From: a phage
DNA: 64,000 nt
Sequence record: OZ346219.1
Direction: 5' to 3' (one strand)
Shown here: piece after piece, positions 1 to 33,066 of the stretch
Position numbering within the stretch: position 1 is the stretch's first letter
How the letters are laid out: each line of letters opens with the position of its first letter
Notes under the pieces: generated by a model
The model's database searches: none
What the model saw: only the letters and a program-made list of their open reading frames with translations
Told to the model about the DNA's origin: nothing
Position numbers and translations under genes: made by a program

Positions 1-632
1 CCGCCTAGCTTAGAATGCTGTTTACTGTACCCTTTATTAATCTGCAACGGTTTCTTTTCTGGCATTATAAAGCCTTGTCCGGTCCATAAGCAAGTCTTTT
101 TCGGGTACATATCACGGGCGGCGATATACTCAGGAAAAGTAGGATGTTTATCATCTTCCGGCAAATAACCGCCATATTCCCACGGGTGGAACATGTAATC
201 AGGCTTACGCCACATGCTAGAGATAACGCTTACAGGATTCTCTATCATGTAGGGAACTCCTAGCCATTCACCCAAATAAGCGGTTATTTTAGCTGCCCTT
301 ACATCATGAACTTGAATCAATGGTCCTTGTTCTCGTTTCTTTCGTTCAAAGTGTGCAGCGCCACTAACAGCTAAATTGGTGCACGGTGGGAATGCAAAGA
401 TAATATCCGGTTTCCCCCATTCAAGGTCCATTGCTCTTTCCAGCCAGTTCAAATCAATCCAGGTGTTTACATAGGTAATGTTTGGATGTTCAAATCTGGT
501 ATTATACTTTTTGTATGTGCCGTGGTCGCCATCATCAGCATTAAAGCAGATCACCTTATGACCTGCTTTAGCCCATTCTAGCCCCATTATCCCCGATCCG
601 TCAAAGTTACAGAATATTAATTTTTGTTTCAT
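1..632 (-). CDS. putative DNA (cytosine-5)-methyltransferase-like protein, N-terminal part only (gene runs off the window start)
   Basis: Open minus-strand frame from ATG at 630-632 to position 1, over 200 codons with no stop; hand translation MKQKLIFCNFDGSG...FAFPPCTNLAVSG...MIENP shows FxGxG, PPC and ENV-like motifs; not in ORF track because truncated. Confidence 0.45.
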   Translation of the reverse strand, partial: MKQKLIFCNFDGSGIMGLEWAKAGHKVICFNADDGDHGTYKKYNTRFEHPNITYVNTWIDLNWLERAMDLEWGKPDIIFAFPPCTNLAVSGAAHFERKKREQGPLIQVHDVRAAKITAYLGEWLGVPYMIENPVSVISSMWRKPDYMFHPWEYGGYLPEDDKHPTFPEYIAARDMYPKKTCLWTGQGFIMPEKKPLQINKGYSKQHSKLG

Positions 633-874
633 ATACGCCCCTTTAATCCAACACAGATTTTAGAAGGTTCTTTGCCGTGCCACATTAAGTAAAGTCCGTT
701 AATGCGGCCTTGTTTTGTATATGATTCTTTTCTGATCTTCTTATAGTGTCGTGTTTCCTCAACTGATTGTTTAGAATACCAATCATAAAGGAAGAGGCAC
801 AAAGGCCAACCATTAGCGGCCTTTGTGCAGTTATTAAGAAATTCCTTATTGCGTTTAATTAATTTTCTTTTCAC
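629..874 (-). CDS. hypothetical protein (81 aa)
   Basis: ORF in the minus-strand small-gene array; abuts neighbours with 4-nt overlaps. Confidence 0.4.
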   Translation of the reverse strand: MKRKLIKRNKEFLNNCTKAANGWPLCLFLYDWYSKQSVEETRHYKKIRKESYTKQGRINGLYLMWHGKEPSKICVGLKGRI

Positions 875-1122
875 GCTGCCCCCATTGGTTTGATAGTAAC
901 AGAATCTAAAAGACCTTTGTTAGCCAGTTCGCGGCAAGTTTTCAGATCCGCAACTTCCCAGCCAGCCGCAATCAGGTTATCAATGAGGCTGTTAGCAACT
1001 TCTTCGCTCATGAAAGAGCACTGTTTGCCGATGGTGTAGCGTACACGCTGTAATTTCAGTTTACGGAAGCCTTTAACGTTCAGGTCTTTAGCGATTTTCT
1101 TTGCGGTTTCGATGTTAGCCAT
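871..1122 (-). CDS. hypothetical protein (83 aa)
   Basis: ORF directly downstream of promoter cassette 1163-1191; GGAG 8 nt before ATG. Confidence 0.45.
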   Translation of the reverse strand: MANIETAKKIAKDLNVKGFRKLKLQRVRYTIGKQCSFMSEEVANSLIDNLIAAGWEVADLKTCRELANKGLLDSVTIKPMGAA

Positions 1123-1162
1123 TGTTTGATTCTCCTAAGTGGTATCTCGTCTTGATGGTTGT

Positions 1163-1191
1163 ATTGTAGGGGAGTTATCCTCCCCTGTCAA
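1163..1191 (-). promoter_or_regulatory. early-type promoter cassette (sigma70-like) with spacer palindrome
   Basis: Minus strand TTGACA, 17-bp spacer GGGGAGGATAACTCCCC, TACAAT; A-rich upstream; conserved leader with GGAG. Confidence 0.6.
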
Positions 1192-1205
1192 CACTTTTTA
1201 TAAAA

Positions 1206-1373
1206 TTATTTGTTAATTTCCGGTGCGTTGCTCGGATAGTAACCTTCTTTAACACCCAGATATTTTGCAACCATCCCTACAATCTTCTGTGCTACTACAA
1301 TGTCAAATTTCAGATAATCTTCGCCGTGGGTTTCAATGATATATGCTTCACATGCTGCTTTAGTCTCGAACAT
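1206..1373 (-). CDS. small hypothetical protein (55 aa), duplicate copy 1
   Basis: Hand translation MFETKAACEAYIIETHGEDYLKFDIVVAQKIVGMVAKYLGVKEGYYPSNAPEINK; near-identical second copy at 4492-4659; promoter cassette upstream. Confidence 0.4.
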   Translation of the reverse strand: MFETKAACEAYIIETHGEDYLKFDIVVAQKIVGMVAKYLGVKEGYYPSNAPEINK

Positions 1374-1406
1374 TTTGATTCTCCTATTTCGTTTCGTTAT
1401 GTGTGT

Positions 1407-1435
1407 ATTATAGGGGATCTCCCGATCCCCGTCAA
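1407..1435 (-). promoter_or_regulatory. early-type promoter cassette with spacer palindrome
   Basis: TTGACG, 17-bp spacer GGGATCGGGAGATCCCC, TATAAT. Confidence 0.6.
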
Positions 1436-1449
1436 CAACTTTTTTAAAA

Positions 1450-1731
1450 TTATTCGTGATTAGTTTCGATGTTGTGCATTTTGCACCAGTTCAGCCAATC
1501 GCCCAGATCTTGATAGTTGATGCTTTTATCTGCTGCCATCGTTTTTGTCTTGATACCCATATGTGCGTTATGAGTAAGCATTTTTACAGTGAACTCGATT
1601 TTATCGCCTTTAGCTTTAACATCAACCAGTTTTGTCCACTGGCTACCAGCACCGCGAATGTTCATACCAACGATGTTTCCGATGTATGCTTCTTTGTTTT
1701 TCAGGATTTCGGTTGCTTTGATGAATTTCAT
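1450..1731 (-). CDS. hypothetical protein (93 aa)
   Basis: ORF downstream of promoter cassette 1765-1793 with conserved leader and GGAG. Confidence 0.45.
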   Translation of the reverse strand: MKFIKATEILKNKEAYIGNIVGMNIRGAGSQWTKLVDVKAKGDKIEFTVKMLTHNAHMGIKTKTMAADKSINYQDLGDWLNWCKMHNIETNHE

Positions 1732-1764
1732 TTTTGATTCTCCAGTTCGTTTCGGTATGGGTGT

Positions 1765-1793
1765 ATTATGCTATGTTCTTACTTTGGTGTCAA
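1765..1793 (-). promoter_or_regulatory. early-type promoter cassette
   Basis: TTGACA, 17 bp, CATAAT; same upstream A-tract and leader, no spacer palindrome. Confidence 0.5.
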
Positions 1794-1802
1794 CAACTTT
1801 TT

Positions 1803-2072
1803 TTAGATATTTTCAGAAATAAATTTTAAAACTTGACGTAAATGTTTCTCATCTTTGATAGTCGCCGGAAGTTCTTCTTTTACTTCCTGTGCAAGATAGA
1901 TATTTCCGTTCCAAGTGAAAGATCCGTCTTCGTTTACGCGATAGCTGAACATCCACTCGCAATCATTTTCGATTTCATATACACACAGAAGGGTGTAATC
2001 GTTAAAGCTATTGATTTCAAGGTCGAAGCCGTGACGTTTTGCAAAGTTGGTAGTGGTTTTAGTCAGCGCCAT
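1803..2072 (-). CDS. hypothetical protein (89 aa)
   Basis: ORF downstream of promoter cassette 2113-2141. Confidence 0.45.
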   Translation of the reverse strand: MALTKTTTNFAKRHGFDLEINSFNDYTLLCVYEIENDCEWMFSYRVNEDGSFTWNGNIYLAQEVKEELPATIKDEKHLRQVLKFISENI

Positions 2073-2112
2073 TGTTTGATTCTCCTAAGTGGTATCTCGT
2101 TTCGATGGGTGT

Positions 2113-2141
2113 ATTATGCTATAGGCGTGATCTGGTGTCAA
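2113..2141 (-). promoter_or_regulatory. early-type promoter cassette
   Basis: TTGACA, 17 bp, CATAAT; conserved leader. Confidence 0.5.
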
Positions 2142-2162
2142 CAACTTTTTTAATTTTTTGGA

Positions 2163-2190
2163 AATAAAAAAGCCGACACTAAGGTCGGCT
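2163..2190 (-). terminator. intrinsic terminator after ORF 2202-2507
   Basis: Minus-strand hairpin AGCCGACcttagtGTCGGCT followed by TTTTTTATTTC. Confidence 0.6.
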
Positions 2191-2201
2191 AATAAAATCA
2201 T

Positions 2202-2507
2202 TTAGACAAAATAATCATTCAGTGCAATCCGGTCGGCGTATGCTGGTGTTACGTCAATCGCAATCACTTTAACGCGTGCTTTCTTGCGACCTGGGTTTTC
2301 TCGTAACCAGTGCTCATGACCGTGAACATTTTTATACTTTGATGCTTCTTCAAATGTACGGATCGGACCTGGATAATCTGCGTAAAGGATCTCTAGGTCT
2401 TCGGTGATGTAAAAATATACATCATAATTACTGTTCTCTAGTTTAAGCAGAGACTTTCGGAACATTGGGAGATTTTCGCGGGTAAATTCAAAGATATTAT
2501 CTTTCAT
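2202..2507 (-). CDS. small protein, HxHW paralog family member A
   Basis: 101 aa; shares YFYITEDLEILYADY...HGHEHW...VIAIDV core with five neighbours. Confidence 0.5.
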   Translation of the reverse strand: MKDNIFEFTRENLPMFRKSLLKLENSNYDVYFYITEDLEILYADYPGPIRTFEEASKYKNVHGHEHWLRENPGRKKARVKVIAIDVTPAYADRIALNDYFV

Positions 2508-2560
2508 AGTATTATCCTCAATAGTTTGATGAAAAGGGGTGGGGCTTAACGCCCCGTATA

Positions 2561-2848
2561 TTAAAACAGTCCTTCCTGTACACCGTAGTAGAGTTCATCG
2601 CTGATAATTTCATTAATGCGACGGTGTGCATATTCCTGATTTGCGAAGTTATCAGCAAGTTCTACTTTAGTTTCTCCGTCATGAGTCCATTTAGTGATAA
2701 CTTTACCATCTGCAAATTTGAAGTTGAACTCTTTAGCTACTGCATCGCGTACCAGACGTGCGAACTTGTTATTACGGATTGCATTATCGGTTTCGTGTGC
2801 AGCGTGAGCGAATTTGTTAACTTTCAGAGTGATAGTAATGTATGCCAT
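2561..2848 (-). CDS. hypothetical protein (95 aa)
   Basis: ORF behind promoter cassette 2895-2923; shares an AKEFN-K segment with the ORF at 5855-6166. Confidence 0.45.
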   Translation of the reverse strand: MAYITITLKVNKFAHAAHETDNAIRNNKFARLVRDAVAKEFNFKFADGKVITKWTHDGETKVELADNFANQEYAHRRINEIISDELYYGVQEGLF

Positions 2849-2894
2849 AATTTGATTCTCCTAGTTAGAAAGTGTATCTCGTTTCGATGGGTGT

Positions 2895-2923
2895 ATTATG
2901 CTATACACCCGATCTTATGTCAA
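2895..2923 (-). promoter_or_regulatory. early-type promoter cassette
   Basis: TTGACA, 17 bp, CATAAT; conserved leader. Confidence 0.5.
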
Positions 2924-2929
2924 CACTTT

Positions 2930-3223
2930 TTATAAAATAATTTTTTGATATTTTTCTATGATGTTTGTGTAGGTCACGTCAACCGCTAGCACCGTTGCTT
3001 CGAATCCACCGTTTAGCCAATGGCTATGATCATGATCGTGAAAGAAACCAAGACCAGTACGAAGACCTTCTTTATATTCGGCGCGTACATTTAGATCATC
3101 ATCGATAAACAGATAAAACCATGAATTTTTACTAGGATTGATGATACAACCTTTCAGATTAGGGAGAATATCACGACTAAGAATAAACTTATCACCTACT
3201 TTGAACATAATATTAGTCCTCAT
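2930..3223 (-). CDS. small protein, HxHW paralog family member B
   Basis: 97 aa; FYLFIDDDL...HDHDHSHW...VLAVDV. Confidence 0.5.
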   Translation of the reverse strand: MRTNIMFKVGDKFILSRDILPNLKGCIINPSKNSWFYLFIDDDLNVRAEYKEGLRTGLGFFHDHDHSHWLNGGFEATVLAVDVTYTNIIEKYQKIIL

Positions 3224-3533
3224 TTATAAGGTCAAACCAATTGTTTTTCGCATAATGCTTAATGCGTGCTTGATCTGCTTCCGCTGGTGATAGATTCCAT
3301 GCAACCACTACAACTTCTGACGCATCGTCATCCGTTTCTGATACCCAATGATTGTGATTCATACAGTTATTTGCGATCGAGTGAGCAAATGATTTCATCA
3401 CTGGAGACGTATAATCATAGTAACGGATTTTCAGATTTTCATCAACGTACAAATAGATCGTATAAGGTTTATATTCAGTAACCAGTAACAGACAGTTACG
3501 CAATTCTGGGAAAATCTTTTTAGTTAATTTCAT
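3213..3533 (-). CDS. small protein, HxHW paralog family member C (divergent)
   Basis: Start trimmed to internal Met (MKLTKK); IYLYVDENL...NHNHW...VVVVAW. Confidence 0.4.
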   Translation of the reverse strand: MKLTKKIFPELRNCLLLVTEYKPYTIYLYVDENLKIRYYDYTSPVMKSFAHSIANNCMNHNHWVSETDDDASEVVVVAWNLSPAEADQARIKHYAKNNWFDLINED

Positions 3534-3534
3534 T

Positions 3535-3753
3535 TTATAATCCTCGGTCGCGGCTATAGTACACGGTACGCCATACAATTTCATGTTTCGTGTCGCTCCA
3601 GCACACGATCTCATTTACTCTTAAATCTTTGTTATCAACAAAAGATGAACATTGTGACGCTTCTTTCATCATTTTATCTGCTGTTTTCTCATCAAATACA
3701 GCACAGATTTCTTTATACACTCGATAATCTTTGAATTGACTCTGAATACCCAT
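3535..3753 (-). CDS. small hypothetical protein, paralog of 3713-3976
   Basis: FKDYRVYKEICAVFDEKTADKMMKEASQCSSF versus FKEYKAYQQILRVYAPEFAEKMMEDASKCPSF in the neighbour; start uncertain. Confidence 0.35.
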   Translation of the reverse strand: MGIQSQFKDYRVYKEICAVFDEKTADKMMKEASQCSSFVDNKDLRVNEIVCWSDTKHEIVWRTVYYSRDRGL

Positions 3754-3976
3754 AATTAACACCATTCCAACCAATTGTTTTTGAGAAAACGTTTATCCAC
3801 TGTTGAGTGTAACATGTTTCTTTCCATGATACAATACGAGTAGAATAATGGTTTTTGTTTCCAGAAAAGGACGGGCATTTTGATGCATCTTCCATCATCT
3901 TTTCGGCGAACTCTGGTGCGTATACTCGCAGGATCTGTTGATATGCTTTGTATTCTTTAAATTTGCTCATAATCAT
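3713..3976 (-). CDS. small hypothetical protein, paralog of 3535-3753
   Basis: 87-aa ORF; tandem paralog pair. Confidence 0.4.
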   Translation of the reverse strand: MIMSKFKEYKAYQQILRVYAPEFAEKMMEDASKCPSFSGNKNHYSTRIVSWKETCYTQQWINVFSKTIGWNGVNYGYSESIQRLSSV

Positions 3977-4235
3977 TCACTACCTTATCAGCTTCTTTTG
4001 TTGTTTTTACATCAACTGCGATAACTCGTAAAGGTTCGTCATGGTTCCACCAGTGGTCATGAATATCAGCTTGTGATTTATCACCAAAGGAATCACGAAT
4101 ATCATTTTTACATTTATAGCTAATGTGACCTTCATAGTCAACATAAAGGTAATTATCGAAAATCGGCGTTTTTAAGATCATACCGAAAAATCTTTCTTTG
4201 TGTGTCTTATCCAGCGTTGCAGTAATTCGCATCAT
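3957..4235 (-). CDS. small protein, HxHW paralog family member D
   Basis: 92 aa; YLYVDYEGHISY...DIHDHWW...VIAVDV; promoter cassette 4460-4488 upstream. Confidence 0.5.
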   Translation of the reverse strand: MMRITATLDKTHKERFFGMILKTPIFDNYLYVDYEGHISYKCKNDIRDSFGDKSQADIHDHWWNHDEPLRVIAVDVKTTKEADKVVNDYEQI

Positions 4236-4459
4236 AATATATTCCTCTTAGAAAGGGATGGTCATTTCTTGAGCTTGTACGTTCTCGTTAGGATTAAACT
4301 TCATCCAGCCGATATTGTCTACCAGCATATGCACATTTTTATCATATCCTACGTGGGTAGTCAATACTGTATGTGCTTTACCTTCAATGATGAGTTCCAT
4401 GTACTTCTGAACTTCGATAGCTTTCATTTTGATTCTCCGTTTGTTGTCTTGATGGGAGT

Positions 4460-4488
4460 ATCTTACTACTCCCTTTAATCATTGTCAA
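4460..4488 (-). promoter_or_regulatory. early-type promoter cassette with palindrome across the -10
   Basis: TTGACA, 17 bp, TAAGAT; palindrome GGGAGTAgtaagaTACTCCC places the -10 in the loop. Confidence 0.55.
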
Positions 4489-4491
4489 CTA

Positions 4492-4659
4492 TTATTTGTT
4501 AATTTCCGGTGCGTTGCTCGGATAGTAACCTTCTTTAACACCCAGATATTTTGCAACCATTCCGGTGATCTTCTGTGCTACTACGATATCGAATTTCAGG
4601 TAGTCTTCACCGTGGTTTGCTACAATGTATGCTTCGCATTCTGCTTTAGTCTGGAACAT
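4492..4659 (-). CDS. small hypothetical protein (55 aa), duplicate copy 2
   Basis: Same length and near-identical nucleotide sequence to 1206-1373; own promoter cassette 4692-4720. Confidence 0.4.
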   Translation of the reverse strand: MFQTKAECEAYIVANHGEDYLKFDIVVAQKITGMVAKYLGVKEGYYPSNAPEINK

Positions 4660-4691
4660 TTTTGATTCTCCTATCTCGTTGGTATGTGTGC

Positions 4692-4720
4692 ATTATAGGG
4701 GATCACCGATCCCCTGTCAA
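4692..4720 (-). promoter_or_regulatory. early-type promoter cassette with spacer palindrome
   Basis: TTGACA, spacer GGGGATCGGTGATCCCC, TATAAT. Confidence 0.6.
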
Positions 4721-4725
4721 CAACT

Positions 4726-5019
4726 TTATAATGCTTTATATGCGTATTTCATAAATTTGTCTGCCACTTCATTGGCATGTTCAGATTCTACGCCTGATTC
4801 TAGAACAATAGCTAGGTCGGTTTCGTCATTCCCGCCGTACCAATGATTTGATGTTCGATTTTTTTCAATTGGAAATTGGTCACTTTTATCTGTGCGACAA
4901 AATACATCTAAATGCTCGTCGATGTAAAAGATCCAATCTTCATAAAGAATAACGGTATTAGCCAGATTTTTATTGCCTTCAACGAAAGGTTCGGCTACAA
5001 ACAAATTAGTATGTTCCAT
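4726..5019 (-). CDS. small protein, HxHW paralog family member E (divergent)
   Basis: Start trimmed to Met20; IFYIDEHLDVF...TSNHW...AIVLESGVE. Confidence 0.4.
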   Translation of the reverse strand: MEHTNLFVAEPFVEGNKNLANTVILYEDWIFYIDEHLDVFCRTDKSDQFPIEKNRTSNHWYGGNDETDLAIVLESGVESEHANEVADKFMKYAYKAL

Positions 5020-5035
5020 AGTATTTTCCTCAAAA

Positions 5036-5227
5036 TTATACAGCTTCGTAAACTTCCCAATGTCCAACACCAGCACGCTTAACGAAAAGGTTTTCTTTTA
5101 TGTTATTCATAAACGTCTGGATGGATTTAATGCGGTTTGAAGGTTTCCATTCTTCGTTGGCATTGCGTCGATACATCATAACATTACCAGTTCGCTTATA
5201 TTCAGCAACCATTTTAAGACCACACAT
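5036..5227 (-). CDS. hypothetical protein (63 aa)
   Basis: ORF in minus-strand array. Confidence 0.35.
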   Translation of the reverse strand: MCGLKMVAEYKRTGNVMMYRRNANEEWKPSNRIKSIQTFMNNIKENLFVKRAGVGHWEVYEAV

Positions 5228-5283
5228 AATATTATCCTCAATTTGTGGGAGAGTATTACCCTCCCGATTATTGTTATACTACA

Positions 5284-5586
5284 TTACGCAAAATGGCGTG
5301 TCAATGCTTCTTTTGCTGTTCCGCTAAGATTCTCGATCTCTCCTGGCATAACCTCAACCGCAAGAACTTCTACAACATCCTCTGATCCTAACCAGTGAGT
5401 ATGACCTTTGTAGAACTTGATATCCCATTTATCGCTATCGCTAGCCCACCACACATCACCGTCGATAAAGTTGATGTAAAGCACACTACGACACATTGAA
5501 TTAATTACTTTCAATACTGCGCCTTTCATCTCTTCCACGGTATGGTCTTCCATTTTGAAGACCTCGCCTACCTTAACTTTTGCCAT
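5284..5586 (-). CDS. small protein, HxHW paralog family member F
   Basis: 100 aa; LYINFIDGDVWW...KGHTHW...VLAVEV. Confidence 0.5.
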   Translation of the reverse strand: MAKVKVGEVFKMEDHTVEEMKGAVLKVINSMCRSVLYINFIDGDVWWASDSDKWDIKFYKGHTHWLGSEDVVEVLAVEVMPGEIENLSGTAKEALTRHFA

Positions 5587-5603
5587 TTAGTCACCTCTCT
5601 TTA

Positions 5604-5783
5604 TTACATAACAATCACGCCAGCCGTTGAAAGTTGATGTTTCAACTGAGCATTTTCTGCTACCGTCAAATCAATGATTTCTTGTGACGCTGCAATCATA
5701 TAGCCATTGGTGATATTGTTTTGCATCAGTTCAATGGTTTCTTCGTTGTAGCGGATTTTAGCGATGATTTCGTTGAAGTTCAT
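5604..5783 (-). CDS. hypothetical protein (about 59 aa)
   Basis: Start trimmed to Met just downstream of promoter cassette 5818-5846 (ATG at 5781-5783 preceded by GGAGAATCAAT). Confidence 0.35.
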   Translation of the reverse strand: MNFNEIIAKIRYNEETIELMQNNITNGYMIAASQEIIDLTVAENAQLKHQLSTAGVIVM

Positions 5784-5817
5784 AATTGATTCTCCTAGTT
5801 CGTTTCGGTATGTGTGT

Positions 5818-5846
5818 AGTATAGGGGATCGGTGATCCCCTGTCAA
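5818..5846 (-). promoter_or_regulatory. early-type promoter cassette with spacer palindrome
   Basis: TTGACA, spacer GGGGATCACCGATCCCC, TATACT. Confidence 0.55.
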
Positions 5847-5854
5847 CAACTTTT

Positions 5855-6166
5855 TTAAAGTTTTTCCATGATAACGGTCATAATTACATCTTCTGCGCGA
5901 GCGGTCAGATTATCAGCGTCAGCATGTGGGCGGTTGGTTGTTACAGAGATAACACCGTTGCGCACTGGTTTGATGTTGATATCAAGATGATCCGCGAAAC
6001 GTTCGCCAGTTACAGAATGAATTTTGGTGTTAAATTCTTTTGCCAGTGCCTTGCGAACTTCACGAATCAGGGTAGCGTTTTTCAGTTGGTTCTCCGCGCT
6101 CATGGTCTTCTTGGTGTTCATGGTTCCGTCGAAGTCAATCATTGGCAGCGTTACGATGTATTTCAT
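5855..6166 (-). CDS. hypothetical protein (about 103 aa)
   Basis: Start trimmed to Met21 downstream of promoter cassette 6212-6240. Confidence 0.4.
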   Translation of the reverse strand: MKYIVTLPMIDFDGTMNTKKTMSAENQLKNATLIREVRKALAKEFNTKIHSVTGERFADHLDINIKPVRNGVISVTTNRPHADADNLTARAEDVIMTVIMEKL

Positions 6167-6211
6167 TTTTGATTCTCCGTTTAAGAAAGTGTGTTTCGTT
6201 TTGATGTGTGT

Positions 6212-6240
6212 AGTATAGGGGATCACCGATCCCCTGTCAA
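6212..6240 (-). promoter_or_regulatory. early-type promoter cassette with spacer palindrome
   Basis: TTGACA, spacer GGGGATCGGTGATCCCC, TATACT. Confidence 0.55.
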
Positions 6241-6252
6241 CAACTTTTTGAA

Positions 6253-6729
6253 TTATTTTTCTTGATGCTCGCGATCGTACTTTTCGAAATAAAATTCTAC
6301 TGGCTGGTCATGAATTGACAGTAAGCCAAAGCGTTTAGCCGCTCGCAATCCCATATTGCGCTGAATGTACTTCTGGAAGTTCTCGCGTATACACTTACGC
6401 CAGTATTCTAAGCCCATACAGCTTTTATAAAGATTGCATTGCACACACGCCGGATTCATGTTATCAAGTATATCATGTTCCGGTTTATGCATTCCTACAA
6501 CCTTATACTTCCACGATCCATCATCATTACGGGCAATTCGTCCATTTTCATCATAGACTACCTTTGAGCGTCGCAATACTGGTTTGATGTGGTCTGCGTG
6601 CCAGCGATCCCCTAGTTCCTCGCCACAATAGGCACAACGTCCACCATATTTCATTTTCAGGATCTGGCGTTGCTCTTTCTTTGACATTTTTTTAGGTTTA
6701 GGGGCTTTCGCCCCTTCATTATCACACAT
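6253..6729 (-). CDS. HNH-type endonuclease-like zinc-finger protein
   Basis: CAYCGEELGDRWHADHIKP (CxxC...HxDH) plus downstream CVQC; start may be the internal Met at 6687. Confidence 0.5.
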   Translation of the reverse strand: MCDNEGAKAPKPKKMSKKEQRQILKMKYGGRCAYCGEELGDRWHADHIKPVLRRSKVVYDENGRIARNDDGSWKYKVVGMHKPEHDILDNMNPACVQCNLYKSCMGLEYWRKCIRENFQKYIQRNMGLRAAKRFGLLSIHDQPVEFYFEKYDREHQEK

Positions 6730-8224
6730 CGAATACCTCTTTTACTGTATTTGCAGTGGTCTTGTCGTATCGAATACGTTTGATGATCGGGAGAAATAAA
6801 GAGAACTCCGGTTCATCTTCTTTACGTGATTTGCTGCGGATATACCCGTTGCATGTCATCTCAATGACTTTTCCAATCAGGTTATGACGGTCAGCCCATA
6901 ACATTTCTCGGTCGAGTTCATTTCGACGATCGAACGGAATTACACGTTCAGTACCATCATCACCTTTTTCGGTTGTAGTGTCGGTTAATCCCGATCCGGT
7001 GTTAGTCATCATTCGTCCGCACGCACTACGGACAGTAAAACCGCCTACCTTATTGGGGTCTTTACTATGCGGATATACATCAACAATTTCCGCGTCGAAG
7101 TCAATCACTTCTTTAAATTTAACCTGATCTTTACTACGGCGATCTTCAAATACACCATGTAAATTTTTAAGGATAATACCTTCTAAGCCCATGTTGACAT
7201 AACGATGATATACTTCGCGAGCTTCATCGATATTGTTAACTACAGTGTTTTCGATGATCTGAACACGAGGATCGTTAAGTTCTTCAACAATCTGTTTTAG
7301 TTCTTCGAATCGATCTTTATATTGCTTCGTTGCTTTCTCGTTTCCGTAATACACATCACGGTCGATAACATCCCAGACAGTGTAAACAATACATTGGGCT
7401 TCTTCTTTTGGAATAGTTCCTTTCAGTGATTTGTTGAGGATACCATTTCCGGTCTGACGATCTGCAACAACGGATTCTTTTACTGCTTCCGCTACTGGCG
7501 TTAATGGCATTTCCTCTTCTTCAAATATCCATGACAGAGTACCATCATAAACGCTTTCAACGAAGTTCTGCGCTGGTGTTTGCGAAAGGGTAGGCATATA
7601 TACCAATTCCCCATCTAGAACAATTCCACGGCCTCGTAGACGCTCTAAAACCGCAAACAAATCATCAAGCCCTTGATAGGTATTACCTGAGCGGGTATAG
7701 ATTGCTAATGTTTCCCCGTCAATATCAGCCATACCACGAGCGCCATCGCTTTTAAGTTGTGCATACGCCGGATACTTGATATTAGCAATAGTCTTATCAG
7801 AACATGACGATGCAAGGTGGCACGGTTGCTGAGGGATCAGTTTCTTCCATACCTTGTTTGCGGTGGTAGCGGAACAACCGCATTCCAGATCACGATTCAG
7901 GACCATCATTGCAACTTTAGCATCATCCTCTGACAAGCAAGTCAGAGTATCGGTAACTAGCTGTAATGCTGCATTACCAGTTACTTGACGCGTGGCAAGT
8001 TTATTTTTAAAGACCTGTAATGCACCGGATAAAGACAATACAGACGAATAGCGAGATGGTTTATCGTATTTCTTTACGCCAAACGTAACCTGTTTGCAAT
8101 ATGCCAGATAAAAGCATTCTTTCAGCGTTTCATTGCTTGCTGATTCTTTCAGAATCTTTTCTTTCAGCGATGTTTTGTCTGTTGCTGCAAGCTGATTAAT
8201 GATATTAAGAATTGACATTTTCAC
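6722..8224 (-). CDS. 30: ATP-dependent DNA ligase (T4 gp30-like)
   Basis: 500 aa; adenylation motif LKSDGARG; T4-like length and position. Confidence 0.9.
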   Translation of the reverse strand: MKMSILNIINQLAATDKTSLKEKILKESASNETLKECFYLAYCKQVTFGVKKYDKPSRYSSVLSLSGALQVFKNKLATRQVTGNAALQLVTDTLTCLSEDDAKVAMMVLNRDLECGCSATTANKVWKKLIPQQPCHLASSCSDKTIANIKYPAYAQLKSDGARGMADIDGETLAIYTRSGNTYQGLDDLFAVLERLRGRGIVLDGELVYMPTLSQTPAQNFVESVYDGTLSWIFEEEEMPLTPVAEAVKESVVADRQTGNGILNKSLKGTIPKEEAQCIVYTVWDVIDRDVYYGNEKATKQYKDRFEELKQIVEELNDPRVQIIENTVVNNIDEAREVYHRYVNMGLEGIILKNLHGVFEDRRSKDQVKFKEVIDFDAEIVDVYPHSKDPNKVGGFTVRSACGRMMTNTGSGLTDTTTEKGDDGTERVIPFDRRNELDREMLWADRHNLIGKVIEMTCNGYIRSKSRKEDEPEFSLFLPIIKRIRYDKTTANTVKEVFDV

Positions 8225-8684
8225 CTCGTTTTGTTAAACGTTCACGAATATCATTGAGGATACTACAAAATTCCGATTCAGTCAATATAGTCTTTAACGG
8301 ATCAGTTCCACCTATACTATGACGTAATTTCTTATTTCCGGTAGCGAGTAATGCTTTACAAAATTCTGGGTTATTCCGTGCCATCGTAACAAATGCCAGA
8401 TGCACCAGTCTGTAATAATGCTCACTCATTCGATGAATCGGGCGACCCTGAAAATATAACAGGTGATTCTCAATCTTTTCAGTTCTTCCGGTTCTTTTTG
8501 CTTTGCCACCGTGCATCAAAAAGATTTCTCTTTGTCTCTGAGGGTTCTTAAATCTTAGCCCCTGTAAAAATCCTTCTGTGCTGTTAATATCGCAACCAAA
8601 TAAACGGAATGGTCTTTTATTGAAATTACTCAATTCACCCGATGGATAAGGTCCACCCGCATAGATATCAATTTCAGAAGTCAT
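8205..8684 (-). CDS. NADAR/YbiA-like domain protein
   Basis: IDIYAGGPYPSGELSNF...STEGFLQGLRF...ALLATGNKKL resembles YbiA/NADAR signature (FY..G.FSNF...SEHYFQA.KF...LL.T). Confidence 0.5.
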   Translation of the reverse strand: MTSEIDIYAGGPYPSGELSNFNKRPFRLFGCDINSTEGFLQGLRFKNPQRQREIFLMHGGKAKRTGRTEKIENHLLYFQGRPIHRMSEHYYRLVHLAFVTMARNNPEFCKALLATGNKKLRHSIGGTDPLKTILTESEFCSILNDIRERLTKRGENVNS

Positions 8685-8859
8685 TGAAACTAATCTCGCT
8701 AATCAGAGAGAACGGATCATAATCGTCATTAGGAATATCGATAGTAATCGAATGAGGATTTACCCATACACCAAACTGGTCTTCTTCGGTGAATACTTCG
8801 GTATGGATTTCGTGGATGTTTACATTCATAGTTTTCATAATAAATTCCTTAATAATCAA
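8674..8859 (-). CDS. hypothetical protein (61 aa)
   Basis: ORF between NADAR-like gene and gene 31. Confidence 0.3.
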   Translation of the reverse strand: MIIKEFIMKTMNVNIHEIHTEVFTEEDQFGVWVNPHSITIDIPNDDYDPFSLISEISFNDF

Positions 8860-8919
8860 TAACTTACAAAATCATATAGCCAAAATATAGGCGGGATTAT
8901 TTCCCGCCGTTTAAAATCA

Positions 8920-9243
8920 TTAACCGTAAACTACCACAATATTCTGTTTGTGCGTTACAGTCCATTTCAGGTCGATCTCTTCTTCCTTCTTAACGCCGTT
9001 AATAACGTCTGGATGAGGAACTTTATTCATCTTGCCATGTGGCAGTAGAACAGTTTTACCCAGCAATTCTTTATCTACCGTCTCGCCAATATCAATAATC
9101 TTACCTACCAGCGGAATCTCGCCCATAGTGCGCTTTTGCTCAATAATGATCCCAATAGAGCTTTTTACTTCTGTCCCTGCGCTTTCTGCTTTAGCTTCAA
9201 TGATCACATAGTCACCAAGTGCTTTAGGAGTTTTAACGGTCAT
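8920..9243 (-). CDS. 31: co-chaperonin GroES-like (T4 gp31-like)
   Basis: 107 aa; GDYVII...NKVPHP resembles gp31/GroES; T4-like position before cd. Confidence 0.7.
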   Translation of the reverse strand: MTVKTPKALGDYVIIEAKAESAGTEVKSSIGIIIEQKRTMGEIPLVGKIIDIGETVDKELLGKTVLLPHGKMNKVPHPDVINGVKKEEEIDLKWTVTHKQNIVVVYG

Positions 9244-21979: not shown

Positions 21980-22007
21980 ATTATACACTATTGCGTTACG
22001 CTGTCAA
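21980..22007 (-). promoter_or_regulatory. early-type promoter cassette
   Basis: TTGACA, 16 bp, TATAAT. Confidence 0.5.
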
Positions 22008-23180
22008 CTCTTTTTCAAAAGATTTTACAATATACATGATAGTGCTCAATTCAGACGGCGCTACTGTCTCTGTGTAGCCGTCCGGCATATCTTCTTTTGA
22101 GATATAGGAAGTTTTACCTTTCATAGCTTCCTTGATCTTGTTCTCTAATTCTAAGATCTTTTGACCATCTTGTAAAGTCAATTCATAAAAGATCTCGTGG
22201 TCGAACTGAGATTTACTGCTTTGTTGTTTTAGTCTTTTGGTGGTATTAGAATTTGTGACCCCAAATTTTACCCCGATTAATAAATGCTCTTTTATTAATT
22301 TTTGAATATACAGAGTTCCTTTTTTTAATGGATTGTACCCATATTTTGCACATTTAGGACATCGAGTTCCGTTCTGAAAATCAGTTATTCTAGGACTAAA
22401 TCCATGTCCATGATCACATAACAACTTTAATCTTGTATTCACACCTTTCCATTCATCTACAAAACCATTACATGTTATATTTTCTTCAACGAAAATTGGT
22501 TTAAGTCTTTCAAGATATTCTTCTTTTGAACGAGCATAGTTTTTTGCACACTTAAAACAACGTCTTCCCGCTTGAAAACTAGATATAATTGGATTAAATT
22601 CATGACCATACTCACACAATAAATTCATTTTTGTTTTGTTGCCGTTCCATTCACCAATAAATCCGTTAAAAATTATGTTCTCTTTTATGAAAATTGGTTT
22701 AAATCTTTCAAGATATTCTTCTTTTGATAAAGCATAATTATGTGCGCATTTAGGACATCGAGTCCCTCTCCGAAAATTTGTTATTGTCGGTGCAAATTCG
22801 TGTCCTTCACAACACACTAAATCTAACTTTGTGAATACACCTTTCCATTCATCTACAAAACCATTACATGTTATATTTTCTTCAACGAAAATTGGTTTAA
22901 GTCTTTCAAGATATTCTTCTTTTGATAAGGAATAATTATGTGCGCATCTAGGGCAACGTTTACCTTTTTGAAAATCTGATATTCTTGGTGTAAATTCATG
23001 TCCTTCACAACACACCAAACCCAATTTTGTTACGTTGCCTTTCCACTCACCAACAAATCCATTAAATACGATATTTTCTTTTTCGAAAATTGGTTTAAGT
23101 CTTTCGTAATATTCCGTAGGACTAATCGAGTTGTATTTTTTCTTAACCCATTCAATCTCATGAGCTTGACGTACTAACAT
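21996..23180 (-). CDS. tandem-repeat zinc-ribbon protein with T5orf172/GIY-YIG-like C-terminal domain
   Basis: Four repeats of about 62-66 aa (EEYLERLKPIF...NGFV.EWKG...CxxGHEF...RCPxCA) then GTLYIQKLIKEHLLIGVKFGVTNSNTTKRL; 85-bp exact DNA repeat at about 22438 and 22847. Confidence 0.6.
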   Translation of the reverse strand: MLVRQAHEIEWVKKKYNSISPTEYYERLKPIFEKENIVFNGFVGEWKGNVTKLGLVCCEGHEFTPRISDFQKGKRCPRCAHNYSLSKEEYLERLKPIFVEENITCNGFVDEWKGVFTKLDLVCCEGHEFAPTITNFRRGTRCPKCAHNYALSKEEYLERFKPIFIKENIIFNGFIGEWNGNKTKMNLLCEYGHEFNPIISSFQAGRRCFKCAKNYARSKEEYLERLKPIFVEENITCNGFVDEWKGVNTRLKLLCDHGHGFSPRITDFQNGTRCPKCAKYGYNPLKKGTLYIQKLIKEHLLIGVKFGVTNSNTTKRLKQQSSKSQFDHEIFYELTLQDGQKILELENKIKEAMKGKTSYISKEDMPDGYTETVAPSELSTIMYIVKSFEKELTA

Positions 23181-23299: not shown

Positions 23300-24274
23300 T
23301 TACATCCCTAACAGAGCGTCAAGATCATCCAGATCAGAAGCGGAGGAAGTACCGCCACCCAGGTCCAGAGATGCCATCAGATCATCAGCGGAAGAATCTA
23401 ACGCCGTGCTAGCTGCGTTAATACCAACTACAGTGCTAGCTGCGGTAGTACCAGCGTCGAATGCATTCATCTGTGCGTCAAAATCATCAAGCTGGCTGTT
23501 AATCGCTGCCGCAGCACTGGAAGCCGCCGCACCAGCTACCATAGAAACGCCCATAGTTTTCTTAAATTTGGTTTCCAGTTCATCGAACGGTTTAAACTGG
23601 CTAGGCGCTACAATCTCACTCAGATCAACCATGTTTTCCATCAGATATTTCTGATATGCTTCGTCTTCAATTTTCGGAAGCTGTGATTGCTGCATGAAAC
23701 GAGAATCGTCATAGTTCTGGTGTTTATCAACCTTCTTAGCTTTCAGGAGGAAGTTAGCACCGGAGAACACACAAGTTACATCTACCGGAACTTCGCCCAT
23801 GTCGGTATTCACGTTCACCATTGCAACGATCTTATCATAAATTTTCTGACCGAAGCGGAATTTGAATACCTTACCTTCATTTTCTGGTGCTTGAGGATCT
23901 TTCAGTACCAGAATATTTGCGTAGTAAGAGGCTTTACGCTTAATCAGTTGCCATTCTGTTTTATCGGTATTGTACAGGTCTTTTTCGTTAATATATTTGC
24001 ACACAGGGCAAGAATCAAAATCACCGTGGGTGCTTGAGCAGTTTTCCCAATACCATTTACCATTAACTTTGAAGGAATGGTTTACCAGTTTCACAATCGG
24101 CAGACCGTCTTCTGTCTTAGACGGCAGGAAGCGAATCAGGGCTTCACCGTTACCTGCTGCATCAGTCTTAATCTTCCACTCTTTCGGATCTTCTTTGGAG
24201 AAACCGTTGCCACCTTTCAGTGCGGCCAGTTGAGCTTGCAGTTTGGAAGAATCTTGACGACGAAACATGTTCAT
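23300..24274 (-). CDS. 32: single-stranded DNA-binding protein
   Basis: Strong match to T4 gp32 ([11 protein letters not shown]..., zinc site [12 protein letters not shown], acidic C-terminus); start may be Met3. Confidence 0.95.
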
Positions 24275-27949: not shown

Positions 27950-30900
27950 ATGGCAGATTTTTCTCAACATTTCAAGGCCACATTTGGCTTTGACGCTGGT
28001 AATGAAAAGGTCGTCAATGTAGCATTGGCTGATAAGAATGTCAACACCGATGCGGTCAACGTTGAATTTTTCAATTACCATAATGGTATTACTCAGTATG
28101 ACACAACTCGCGGTTATGATCAATACGGAACTACAATCTATCAAAACCGTCCGTATTATGCAAAAGAAGATATCACAAAGCCAGCAGGAGATTTTGACCC
28201 GACTAAATGGCAAGCACTGCGCACGGACCCACGTTGGGATTATATTGCAGCAACTTCCGGTGATACTCCTTTACAGTCTGGCGATTATATCGCAGCAGAT
28301 GGTCAATTTGCAAACTTGACTTTCTCTATGCCAACTAAACCAGCAGAGGGAGACACTATAACAGTAAAAGATATCGGTGGCAAGTGTGGTGTTAACGAAT
28401 TATCGTTCTTGAGTACAGGACATGAGTTTTACCATAATGGTAATGTGTATAACAGAAAATGGTATTGCACTACCCCGTATGCAATGAACTATTTCATCTT
28501 TGTTCGGAATCGTTGGCATGTTTATCAGACAGGAACAGAGCCACGCGGTGTGTACGCACAGCCAGCGATTGATGCTATTCAAATGCAGAATGGTGATCAG
28601 GTATTTCGTCGTAGTTCGTTGGGTAATATTACCTTAGTGCTTCCTAAGTTTGCCAACAATGGCGACATGATCCAGACTACAGACCTTGACGGATTAACCG
28701 CAACCAACCACGTTACGGTTAAAGTTCATGAGCACGCAGAAGAACAATCAATTGGCACGTCCGGTCTAAAAGAGATTATCGGTAAGCGTAGCGGTCATGG
28801 TGTATTCATCTTTGACAAGACGGAAAACTTATGGCGTTTGTGGGATGGTGATCAGTCTGTTCGTCTTAAACCGATCATCAATGACACTCGCTTGCAACCT
28901 AATAGCTATGTTGCTGTATTTGGTGGTCGTGATGTTACTCTGACGCTGCCGACCAATGTCGAGCCGGGTGATCGTATTCAAGTTTCTATGCAGTATATGC
29001 ACGGAAACCAGACTTGCCGAATCATTACCTCAGAAGAGGATACAAAAATCCTTATGCAGAAAAACATGGTTCAGTTTCCTAAGCGTAGCGAGTACCCATT
29101 CAATGGGACCGATACATGGACTGGAGTGTCTGAATTGTCTTTCAACGCTGCAAATGATTATGTACCTTATCTGGAGTTCTCTTATTCAGAAGGTGATGAT
29201 GGTAAGAAATACTGGTTGGTGGCACATGCTCACCCGATTGTAGAACGAGTAGATCCGACTCGTAAAGATCGTGTTGGTGTAATTGCACTGGCTACCCAGA
29301 CTGAAACGAATAAAAACCATGAAGAGAATCCTAGCGACGAAGTTGCTGTAACACCAAAAATGCTGGCTAATAAAACAGCCAACGAAACTCGACGCGGTAT
29401 TGCTCGCATTGCGACTCAAGCGGAAACGCATCAAGATACTGGTTCCAACTTCCTGGATGATGTTATCGTTACACCCAAAAAGTTAAATGACTGTGTTGCT
29501 ACCGAAGCCCGTCGTGGTGTGATGGAAATTGCAACCCAGCACGAAACCAATGAAGGTTTAGACGATACCCGCGCTATTACTCCTAAGAAATTAGAAGAAC
29601 GTCGCGCTTCCGAAGATCTAGCTGGTATTGCTGAAATTGTTCAGGCTGGCGGTAGTGCTGCCGCTCGACGTGGCGAAGCTGGTACAGGGATCTATAACAT
29701 CAACGACCATGCTAAAATTGTTACGCCACAAAACATCAACGAAGTCAAGGCGACCGAAACTTCCCGTGGTGTTGGCTATCTGGCAACTGACGCGGAAGTG
29801 CAAGGGGCTACAGAATCAACCCCGCAAGATGCTTTACTAATCACGACTCGCACGCTAACGAAACGTACTGCTACCGAATCGCGCACTGGTATCGCTGAAA
29901 TTGCAACTCAGGAAGAAACAAACTTAGGTCAAAGTGATAACCATATCATCACGCCTAAAAAGCTGCATACTCGCCGCGCAACTGAAACTTTACATGGTTT
30001 AGCAGAAATTGCAACTCAACCGGAGTTTGACGCAGGTCGTGACGATTCTCGCATTTCTACCCCATTGAAGATTAAAACCTTCTTTGAGAATGCACAGCGT
30101 TTGAAAGTAGATCCGACTCAGGGGCTTAACCTTACTGGTGATTTGTGGCAAGGTATCATGATCAGCGGTCTGGATGCAACCGAAGACACAAAAGGTGTCG
30201 CTAAAGTTGCGACTACTCAGCTTACTGACGCTGGTCAAGATGATACTACAATCATCACGCCTAAAAAGCTGCAAGGCAAAAAGGCCACCGAAGGTAAAGA
30301 AGGTATTATCCGAGTTGGTACTCAAGCCGAAACCGTGGCTGGTATTATGGACAATGTAGCAATTTCTCCGAAGAACTTCAAATATGTTGTTCAGACAGAG
30401 GATACATGGAAAGCAACCGAAGCGCGTCGTGGATTCTTGAAAGTTGCTACTCAGGAAAACTGTTTTGTTGGTGATAATCTGCAAGGTTCTACTCAAGAAC
30501 TAGGAAACTACCAGCATGACGGAATTGCTGTTACCCCTAAAGGATTAAACTACGCACTTGCTAATTTCTTACCTAAGATGGCAACCGCTCAGAATAGTTT
30601 GAAATTGGGTAACGTAGAGGCCTCTAAATGGGCGCGTAGAGACATTGACCAGACCATTGAGAGCAATTACACGTTTAATAAAAACGTTAACGTGAAGGGC
30701 GATTTAGAGTGCTTAAAATCTGGTTCCTTTGAAACTCTGTCTGTGACTAAGAACTCGACCGATGTTCCGAGTAATGGTCATCTGGTGTTGGGTGAGCGTG
30801 GAGTTGACGGTCACACCGGAATTACTCTGCATGGCACAACCGCATCGGAAGGCATGAAAAACTCTTGGTCTATTATCGTTGGTGGTACTGGAACAGCGCA

Positions 30901-31690
30901 AGTTGTTGATAGTGATGCTATCGCTTTCGGTAAAATCAATGATGGTGGAGTCGTTGAGCATTACGCCTTTGCTATGAAACACAATGGCGACGCGACAGCA
31001 TATAGAGACTTTATTGCAGGTCGTAACCTGTATGCGAAACAAGGCGGTTTATACATTGTTGACCAGTCTAATCCGGCAATGACTCGTTCCCCAGATGGTA
31101 TGCTGAATATCGGTCACGGTGGAAGTGTTAACATCAAGGCAGGGCATCAAACGTTAACTACAGAGATCGCCGGACAGAAGTATCAGATCGTACACGCAGG
31201 AAACGCTGACGAAGTTCTTAACCGTCAGTTTGTTAAGAATGCTGGCGATACAATGGTCGGTAAGCTGACTATGGATAATGCGCCTATTGTTTCTGTTAAG
31301 CATGAAGCTAGCGCGGCAACCGCTCCGGCAATCGGTAACATCGGTTTCTGGAATATGCGAGTTACTACCCAGAACATCAAAGAAACTTATCCAGAGAAGA
31401 AAAACGGTACTCTGATGCAATGGGGTACTGACGCGGACGGGCTTACCCAGCTTTGGTCCCCTGATGGTACTCATAAACATTATATCCGTTCCGGTACTGG
31501 TGGTCAATGGACCGCATGGGGTGAAATTTACACCAAACAGAACAAGCCTACCGCTCAGGAAATCGGGGCAGTAGTTGCAGAAGGTGGTTTAATGAACTCT
31601 ATGACGGTTCGTGATTGGATCAAAGTTGGTAATGTTAAAATCATCGCCAATAATCTGACTCGTACCGTAGACTTTATCTGGGAAGACTAA
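27950..31690 (+). CDS. 34: long tail fibre proximal subunit
   Basis: 1246 aa; T4 gp34-like N-terminus and repeated ATExRRGIAxIATQ motifs. Confidence 0.9.
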   Translation: MADFSQHFKATFGFDAGNEKVVNVALADKNVNTDAVNVEFFNYHNGITQYDTTRGYDQYGTTIYQNRPYYAKEDITKPAGDFDPTKWQALRTDPRWDYIAATSGDTPLQSGDYIAADGQFANLTFSMPTKPAEGDTITVKDIGGKCGVNELSFLSTGHEFYHNGNVYNRKWYCTTPYAMNYFIFVRNRWHVYQTGTEPRGVYAQPAIDAIQMQNGDQVFRRSSLGNITLVLPKFANNGDMIQTTDLDGLTATNHVTVKVHEHAEEQSIGTSGLKEIIGKRSGHGVFIFDKTENLWRLWDGDQSVRLKPIINDTRLQPNSYVAVFGGRDVTLTLPTNVEPGDRIQVSMQYMHGNQTCRIITSEEDTKILMQKNMVQFPKRSEYPFNGTDTWTGVSELSFNAANDYVPYLEFSYSEGDDGKKYWLVAHAHPIVERVDPTRKDRVGVIALATQTETNKNHEENPSDEVAVTPKMLANKTANETRRGIARIATQAETHQDTGSNFLDDVIVTPKKLNDCVATEARRGVMEIATQHETNEGLDDTRAITPKKLEERRASEDLAGIAEIVQAGGSAAARRGEAGTGIYNINDHAKIVTPQNINEVKATETSRGVGYLATDAEVQGATESTPQDALLITTRTLTKRTATESRTGIAEIATQEETNLGQSDNHIITPKKLHTRRATETLHGLAEIATQPEFDAGRDDSRISTPLKIKTFFENAQRLKVDPTQGLNLTGDLWQGIMISGLDATEDTKGVAKVATTQLTDAGQDDTTIITPKKLQGKKATEGKEGIIRVGTQAETVAGIMDNVAISPKNFKYVVQTEDTWKATEARRGFLKVATQENCFVGDNLQGSTQELGNYQHDGIAVTPKGLNYALANFLPKMATAQNSLKLGNVEASKWARRDIDQTIESNYTFNKNVNVKGDLECLKSGSFETLSVTKNSTDVPSNGHLVLGERGVDGHTGITLHGTTASEGMKNSWSIIVGGTGTAQVVDSDAIAFGKINDGGVVEHYAFAMKHNGDATAYRDFIAGRNLYAKQGGLYIVDQSNPAMTRSPDGMLNIGHGGSVNIKAGHQTLTTEIAGQKYQIVHAGNADEVLNRQFVKNAGDTMVGKLTMDNAPIVSVKHEASAATAPAIGNIGFWNMRVTTQNIKETYPEKKNGTLMQWGTDADGLTQLWSPDGTHKHYIRSGTGGQWTAWGEIYTKQNKPTAQEIGAVVAEGGLMNSMTVRDWIKVGNVKIIANNLTRTVDFIWED

Positions 31691-31692
31691 TT

Positions 31693-31708
31693 AAAGGGGG
31701 CGAAAGCC
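31693..31708 (+). other. GNRA-tetraloop hairpin GGGGGC-GAAA-GCCCCC between genes 34 and 35
   Basis: Identical 16-mer to the minus-sense element at 19446-19461; no U-tract. Confidence 0.5.
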
Positions 31709-31723
31709 CCCTATGGGGTTATT

Positions 31724-32863: not shown

Positions 32864-32874
32864 CATTTTTAACA

Positions 32875-32903
32875 AGCCGATCCATGTGGTCGGCTTTATT
32901 TTT
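32875..32903 (+). terminator. intrinsic terminator after gene 35
   Basis: Hairpin AGCCGATC-catgt-GGTCGGCT followed by TTTATTTTT. Confidence 0.6.
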
Positions 32904-33032: not shown

Positions 33033-33066
33033 CTCGGAACTATAACTAATTTTTTGAGGTTACTTT

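Follow-up and report, generated by a model that had tools for sequence, protein, structure and literature searches.

Early orphan genes number in the hundreds in T4-type phages, and an increasing proportion of them turn out to be host-takeover or anti-defence factors. The closest described systems are the orphan-gene cassettes of T4-type hyperplastic regions, in which PeSLs, elements that combine a promoter with a stem-loop, were found experimentally in RB49 and phi1 to have promoter and terminator activity and to recombine, thereby excising or exchanging cassettes (Arbiol et al. 2010, PMC2839356; extended in Comeau et al. 2014, PMC4122927). We analyzed a 64,000-nucleotide (nt) stretch of phage DNA (record OZ346219.1; hereafter, the window) in which six minus-strand open reading frames (ORFs), members A to F, encode a family of small proteins with a His-x-His-Trp motif. 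The locus belongs to the same phage group, for which RB49 and phi1 serve as type examples, and the same kind of region as the published cassettes and shares with them promoter and stem-loop elements, small database-orphan products, and gene-level replacement between near-identical phages. Four hallmarks of a PeSL cassette were found here, i.e. a variable region, flanking sigma-70/stem-loop repeats, orphan products, and polymorphism between close relatives. While the PeSL papers treat the orphan genes as unrelated units, the six cassette genes here form one ancient family in a fixed order, which suggests an array that is stable rather than freely shuffled.

The same proteins are also present in PHROGs, where they are spread over five families of 'unknown function' (9345, 17255, 15972, 15965, and 16486) that are cross-linked only for A, B, C, and D, via phrog_9345; the profile comparisons described below unite all six. 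Deposition of the genes, their entry in PHROGs, and the PeSL cassette setting of the RB49 hyperplastic region are therefore already known. What is new is the recognition that they make up a single family of six to seven members that shares an invariant motif, as well as the conserved array order, a predicted fold without a solved neighbor, and purifying selection on the family. Neither the RB49 genome paper nor the two PeSL papers mention the family or its paralogy in the text that was searched, and literature searches that paired Krischvirus with anti-defence or used the RB49 locus tags came up empty.

Judged by its sequence, the window comes from a T4-type, RB49-like coliphage of the genus Krischvirus (family Straboviridae). 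Its bases 2000-6000 match 59 phage records at 80-99% nt identity, all of them RB49-like coliphages of Krischvirus (29 at 95-99%, 26 at 90-95%, and 4 at 80-90%), with FL37 and kaaroe being the closest at 98.8%. The RB49 counterparts of A-F (Table 1) are all annotated as 'hypothetical protein'.

A six-member paralogous family

Profile comparisons confirm that the six minus-strand ORFs constitute one paralogous family. Hidden Markov models (HMMs) built from any five members recovered the sixth, every time, as the best non-training match among the 647 six-frame ORFs of the window (E-values of 3.5e-12, 7.7e-9, 7.1e-12, 4.6e-7, 4.1e-4, and 1.9e-6 for A to F, respectively), with the next matches at E >0.09; no seventh member was found by HMM in this set. 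Pairwise BLASTP links A-C (7e-14), B-D (1e-5), B-F (9e-5), A-D (3e-4), and A-F (1e-3), and is only marginal for E (7e-3 to F). Comparison of 20 E-type sequences with 30 of the other five types by hhalign gave a probability of 98.5% (E 2.9e-15), and E is therefore a true family member. Identity to A among the paralogues is only 16-33% in the six-way alignment, yet they have kept the motif, so they are both old and constrained.

Three blocks remain in register in MAFFT alignments of the six members, of 51 family sequences, and of 25 diverse representatives. The first is a strand of the form [YF][LIF][YF][IV][DNT], the second is (H)-x-H-W, and the third is a strand, V[LIV][AE]x[DNEG][VL], that leads into an 'EAD' helix start. 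Only H66 and W67 (A numbering) are invariant across the 51 sequences, while H64 and V81 are at least 90% conserved. The first histidine is replaced by serine in the E of the window (SNHW), most E orthologues reading HNHW. Neither the acidic position behind the first strand nor the D in the AVDV strand is invariant, and the monomer holds no third invariant ligand residue. Member B carries the run HDHDHSHW, and A, C, and F also read H-x-H-x3-4-E. The string H.HW occurs 6 times in the 53,778 residues of the six-frame ORFs against 0.62 expected, and five of these occurrences fall in the family. The remaining ORF with this string (58513-58707) was ruled out as a further member, as it lies out of frame inside the primase gene.

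The original prediction, made from the letters of the window alone, of a six-member paralogous family of ~100-amino acid (aa) proteins with positionally conserved motifs is borne out by the leave-one-out HMMs, hhalign, and the alignments. Its invariant HxHW core stands for the H-W pair but not for the first histidine. Likewise, the six ORFs it placed are all present on the minus strand, each with a GAGG Shine-Dalgarno sequence 7-9 nt 5' of the ATG, but the end of B, given as 3223, most likely needs correction to 3208. The probable start of B is the ATG at 3208 (92 aa), on which RB49p199 and phrog_17255 agree and whose Shine-Dalgarno sequence reads GAGGA. The ATG at 3223 falls within the terminal part of C; the phrog_17255 alignment begins at residue 6 of the longer, 97-aa reading.

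Array order, selection, and regulatory repeats

The six-gene array occupies a variable slot with the HNH/DNA ligase gp30 genes (gene 30; 6253-8224) on one side and alt on the other. This ligase-alt position is kept in RB49, JSE, Brandy, JK32, E26, KMB43, G2248, ECD7, two 170-kb metagenome phages, and L004, a T4-like contig with a ligase 72% identical to that of the window and two E-like copies in the slot. The gene order F-E-D-C-B-A, with 6-7 copies, is kept in ten related loci. The seventh copy is absent from the window and lies upstream of F in JSE, G2248, and one metagenome phage; it encodes a degenerate protein of 88 aa (GNGHLIN, no Trp) that Foldseek also recovered. Family members differ much more between genomes than their neighbors do: amino acid identity to the window ranges over 82-97% for A, 69-100% for E, and 54-99% for C, with B absent or replaced in three loci, and reaches 97-100% for the neighboring ligase and 100% for two interleaved ORFs. 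The HNH endonuclease gene is present in every Krischvirus locus checked and is 86% identical in the more distant L004.

Pooled Nei-Gojobori ratios of nonsynonymous to synonymous divergence (dN/dS) within each orthologue group were 0.21 for A, 0.08 for B, 0.20 for C, 0.14 for D, 0.23 for E, and 0.15 for F, compared to 0.15 for the ligase. Each paralogue is under purifying selection, with no gene-wide diversifying selection. The divergent groups also have a high dS (0.34 for A and 0.59 for E), which means that their divergence reflects old alleles exchanged by recombination rather than fast protein evolution. Comparative genomics gives the family a clear coding signal, a check that the original prediction had named, while its proposal that the family is under diversifying selection is not supported, given that dN/dS lies in the range of the ligase and that the divergence is accompanied by high dS.

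These data also bear on whether the six genes could be functionless passengers, i.e. filler ORFs multiplied by unequal recombination at PeSLs and kept by hitch-hiking. In favor of passengers, recombination at PeSLs can cut out and dimerise cassettes of orphan genes (PMC2839356), further orphan genes in the region are duplicated, and most T4-like phages do without the family. The selection data disfavour this explanation, however, since dN/dS is as low as in the ligase; moreover, the frames are intact, every copy has its Shine-Dalgarno sequence, the order is kept in the ten genomes checked, and strongly diverged paralogues have retained the motif. We therefore consider it very unlikely.

The picture is instead that of an old array whose members are each constrained, with recombination now and then putting a divergent allele in place of one of them. 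Sliding identity shows gene-sized blocks: nt identity in the E block drops to 68-78% in Brandy and E26, with flanks at 94-99%, and that in the C/B block to 40-55% in JSE. The C/B block is replaced in JSE, KMB43, and L006, where the variants of C have 46-58% identity. A PeSL lies at the downstream edge of both blocks (4684-4746 for E and 2887-2949 for C/B). Within orthologue groups the replacements are scattered and leave the central strands and the motif untouched.

A 63-nt repeat (TTGACA, a 17-nt spacer, and TATA(A/C)T) occurs in eight copies within positions 1-9000, and the spacer often holds the stem-loop GGGGATC...GATCCCC; by these features the repeats are PeSL elements as published for RB49 and phi1. 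A promoter scan found matches of 10-12 of 12 positions on the minus strand at 6240, 5846, 5304, 4720, 4488, 2923, and 2141. An Rfam scan of 1-9000 returned no match. GC and AT skews are negative over the array region, consistent with minus-strand coding, and the annotation of G2248 has a terminator at the place of the hairpin after A. The predicted transcription units are four short ones (the 59-aa ORF with F, the 63-aa ORF with E, the 55-aa ORF alone, and the 95-aa ORF with A) and a long one comprising a 59-aa ORF (4248-4427), D, an 87-aa ORF (3713-3976), a 72-aa ORF (3535-3753), C, and B. Not every member would thus have its own PeSL, as C, B, and D share one unit. The near-consensus sigma-70 PeSL promoters point to early expression, with the host RNA polymerase in its unmodified form.

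The ORFs interleaved with the family are orphans as well, three of them having a nearby paralogue (phrog_7474, 8471, and 8009). The 55-aa phrog_8009 genes at 1206-1373 and 4492-4659 (minus strand) are 89% identical in amino acids and 88% in nucleotides over 172 nt; each copy sits directly downstream of a PeSL, and the pair looks like a recent cassette duplication. The phrog_8471 pair (3535-3753 and 3713-3976, minus strand; 40% identity) lies directly upstream of C, and the phrog_7474 pair (2561-2848 and 5855-6166, minus strand) is interleaved with the family. Six copies had been thought unusual for a phage: the family is indeed the largest in the window, yet it sits in a known hyperplastic shuffling region, and these 6 kb contain another three pairs of duplicated orphan genes.

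Table 1. Family members, flanking genes, and predicted regulatory elements of the window, with family copies from related loci.
Feature	Position	Strand	Details
Member A, 101 aa	2202..2507	-	RB49p197 orthologue; HEHW, residues 64-67 (nt 2307-2318); phrog_9345, E 4e-48
Member B, 92 aa	2930..3208	-	RB49p199; HSHW, residues 61-64; start corrected
Member C, 106 aa	3213..3533	-	RB49p200; HNHW, residues 60-63
Member D, 92 aa	3957..4235	-	RB49p203; HDHW, residues 59-62
Member E, 97 aa	4726..5019	-	RB49p206; most divergent; SNHW, residues 57-60
Member F, 100 aa	5284..5586	-	RB49p208; HTHW, residues 62-65
HNH endonuclease gene	6253-6729	-	Overlaps 3' end of DNA ligase gene by 8 nt
DNA ligase gene (gene 30)	6722-8224	-	
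63-nt repeat	1155-1217		
63-nt repeat	1399-1461		
63-nt repeat	1757-1819		
63-nt repeat	2105-2167		
63-nt repeat, PeSL-type promoter	2887-2949	-	11/12; after B; predicted to drive 95-aa ORF 2561-2848 and A
63-nt repeat, PeSL	4684-4746	-	Perfect consensus TTGACA-17-TATAAT; directly after E; predicted to drive 55-aa ORF 4492-4659
63-nt repeat, PeSL (TTGACA - GGGGATCaccGATCCCC - TATACT)	5810-5872	-	Promoter 5846-5818, 11/12; predicted to drive 59-aa ORF 5604-5783, then F
63-nt repeat	6204-6266		
Sigma-70-like promoter, stem-loop in spacer	4460..4488	-	10/12; upstream of the unit from 59-aa ORF 4248-4427 to B
Sigma-70-like promoter (TTGACA-17-TAGTAT)	5276..5304	-	10/12; overlaps F 3' end; upstream of 63-aa ORF 5036-5227 and E
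Intrinsic-terminator-like hairpin (AGCCGAC...GTCGGCT + T run)	2171..2190	-	After A
Seventh copy, JSE (EpJSE_00215)	L008 4854-5120		
Seventh copy	L006 7581-7847		
Seventh copy	L013 4693-4959		
P0092, 203-aa tandem two-domain HxHW fusion	L002 823-1434		SRR8048117_15661, the 2.1-kb contig

Predicted fold and distribution of the family

The six members are proteins of 92-106 aa with pI values of 4.5-6.3, without a Cys cluster or a hydrophobic segment. An AlphaFold2 model of A on the 51-sequence alignment (mean predicted local distance difference test score (pLDDT) of 80.8; predicted template modeling score (pTM) of 0.77) contains a strand at residues 5-7, a helix at 13-16, strands at 19-23, 29-34, and 40-45, a helix at 52-56, a short helix at 64-68 with the H-x-H-W motif, a strand at 78-84, and a C-terminal helix at 88-100. 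The model is least confident around the motif (pLDDT 63-66, residues 51-70). In keeping with the earlier statement that the family could not be placed, scans of all six members against Pfam, NCBIfam, and PADLOC gave nothing above threshold, a PDB sequence-profile search returned only 1yb3_A (E 0.44), and Foldseek of the A model against the PDB found no significant neighbor (best E 0.94). Against predicted viral structures, Foldseek recovered family members of kvi, PHB13, and JSE as well as weak matches to uncharacterised phage proteins.

The family resembles cupin, HIT, and HNH proteins in its local H-x-H string, which often reads literally H-N-H-W, and in some members by a glutamate 3-4 residues later. 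Cupins carry the motif G-x5-H-x-H-x3,4-E, and HIT proteins the motif H-phi-H-phi-H-phi-phi near the C-terminus of an alpha+beta dimer fold. Each of these assignments was ruled out. The predicted topology holds no cupin barrel, i.e. the two-motif beta-barrel of G-x5-H-x-H-x3,4-E-x6-G. In the case of HIT, the x residues are polar here (E, S, N, D, and T), a third in-register histidine occurs only in B, and the fold-search matches contain no HIT structure. For HNH/His-Me finger nucleases, the H-N-H-W is contiguous rather than spaced, without a beta-beta-alpha-metal finger or a Pfam HNH match; the genuine HNH gene is the neighbor at 6253-6729. A KOW/SH3-like barrel was also rejected (a source names P0075 'KOW2-KOW3 domains of Spt5'), as the KOW motif within a 5-stranded barrel was not found.

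A broader possibility is that the members are metal-binding proteins or mini-enzymes, in which the H-x-H would coordinate Zn, Fe, or Ni, possibly across a dimer or with nearby acidic residues, to hydrolyse or modify a host metabolite or a nucleic-acid end. This H-x-H is a common metal-ligand spacing, its extension by glutamate in A, C, and F resembles cupin motif 1, and the His-rich run of B would suit a metal site. However, only two histidines are conserved, and the candidates for a third ligand vary (the D of Y-I-D to T or N; the D of A-x-D-V to N, G, or E). Moreover, the E of the window is under purifying selection despite having lost the first histidine, no Pfam enzyme domain was detected, and the predicted 5-stranded sheet with helices is neither a cupin barrel nor a HIT or metallo-beta-lactamase fold, none of which came up at a significant Z. 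We regard a metal-dependent role as improbable. Metal or nucleotide binding, which the original prediction suggested for the motif, would also have to accommodate a first histidine that part of the E lineage does without and a seventh member that lacks the Trp.

Beyond the window, a profile search of 5.8 billion clustered proteins gave 90 matches, each with an identity of at least 54% to a member of the six. An exhaustive HMMER search of 1.84 billion representatives gave 22 clusters, all of short phage-type proteins save one spurious, with no cellular homologues among them; repeating the search with a broader profile brought in no further lineage. When two distant members were compared with 50,697 phage genomes by tblastn, only Krischvirus matched (57 and 56 records), and scans of IMG/VR with P0092 and P0096 found no match. 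These searches indicate a family confined to Krischvirus and a few uncultured T4-type relatives and absent from T4 and most T4-like phages. One candidate, P0100, a eukaryote-looking repeat protein of 1034 aa (E 5e-8), was rejected because its seven repeats score 2-11 bits each, with the Trp out of register. Its E-value came from summing seven near-identical weak matches, which calls for caution with repeat-inflated scores.

The uncultured relatives include a 2.1-kb metagenome contig in which four adjacent genes encode five family domains and alternate with homologues of the 59-aa ORFs of the window; packing of this kind suggests that arrays are the normal state of the family. In P0120, a metagenome protein of 260 aa, two phrog_8471 domains are joined to one C-like HxHW domain, a hint that the two domain types are functionally linked.

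Candidate functions and other features of the window

The tandem fusion P0092 (Table 1) is relevant to a reading of the members as small-molecule sponges, in which the oligomer of each paralogue would sequester a different immune signaling nucleotide in the manner of Tad1, Tad2, and Acb2, with the Trp stacking on the base and the His contacting phosphate or ribose. A size of ~95 aa, the probable early expression, solubility, and the multiplicity of paralogues all fit, and a natural fusion suggests that two domains work together. In addition, the aromatic residue and the His pair sit in a low-confidence loop, both in A and in P0092 (pLDDT <50 in the disordered motif loops; 61 overall), that may order on ligand binding. 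Conversely, the P0092 model shows no confident inter-domain packing (pTM 0.52), the first histidine is lost in some E-type members and the Trp in the seventh member, and conserved basic residues for phosphate binding are absent. Sponging of nucleotides is, on balance, unlikely. The resemblance to Tad2, AcrIIA7, and the type VI secretion immunity protein Tis1 appears to be one of lifestyle only, no significant similarity in sequence or fold having been found.

The array is best explained as six tandem paralogues of ancient origin, in an orphan family whose alpha/beta proteins are small (84-114 aa), soluble, and for the most part acidic. Their genes would be transcribed by the host RNA polymerase, still unmodified, immediately after infection. 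Individual genes pass between phages in cassettes the size of a gene, and one edge of the block lies at a PeSL. We hypothesize that the proteins are non-enzymatic binders that neutralise or redirect host macromolecules during host takeover or counter-defence, each paralogue having a different target, and that the (H)-x-H-W segment, located between strands 4 and 5 in a loop or short helix that is poorly ordered, could be the contact site. The invariant H-W and the near-invariant second histidine point to a specific site, which could be a protein contact, a small-ligand pocket, or a metal site.

Such a role as accessory early host-interaction proteins that bind host factors is suggested by the small, acidic, and soluble nature of the members, the lack of an enzyme signature or of cellular homologues, the early promoters, and the accessory status of the genes, together with the existence of several non-redundant paralogues with cassette-wise allele exchange. 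We hold it tentatively, at somewhat short of even odds. Several points weigh against it: no member has homology that ties it to a host target or defence system; an invariant His/His/Trp signature is seen more typically at ligand, metal, or catalytic sites than where proteins contact each other; a simple arms race would predict neither the strong purifying selection nor the stable order of the genes; and the early timing is deduced from promoter sequence only. The host-interaction or anti-defence role that the original prediction put forward is plausible from context. Another assignment, that of internal proteins with a capsid-targeting sequence, was dropped, as the N-termini are inconsistent and the promoters are of the early type.

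A bolder proposal, which we see as a long shot, is that the array forms a battery of an unrecognised fold whose His-x-His-Trp loop, probably at a dimer interface, would capture a different host immune signal or defence protein in each paralogue. If true, this would be a new multi-specificity counter-defence family specific to RB49-like phages. More generally, the family turns six 'hypothetical proteins' into one tractable target, for which one structure and one mutant series (H-to-A, W-to-A) could inform all members, and its conserved array with allele swapping offers a natural experiment on specificity diversification. It also refines the picture of PeSL shuffling, in that some hyperplastic-region cassettes form a stable, ordered array. 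Even if the role proves to be only a minor, accessory one, the unification of five PHROGs is a useful annotation.

Elsewhere in the window, a 394-aa ORF (21996-23180, minus strand) contains four tandem repeats of ~66 aa with CxxC-type pairs and a distinct C-terminal domain; Tandem Repeats Finder (TRF) reports a period of 198 nt, 3.4 copies, and a 75% match. The adjoining 324-aa ORF (23300-24274) looks, from a reading of its sequence, like the single-stranded DNA-binding protein gp32. Three further paralogous ORF pairs lie on the minus strand (16581-16763/16748-16930, 10326-11228/14932-15429, and 38817-39146/39255-39596), with 28-37% identity and E-values of 1e-12 to 5e-5. GC and AT skew are positive in 28001-38000 and negative in the rest of the window, and this turn suggests a block transcribed from the plus strand.

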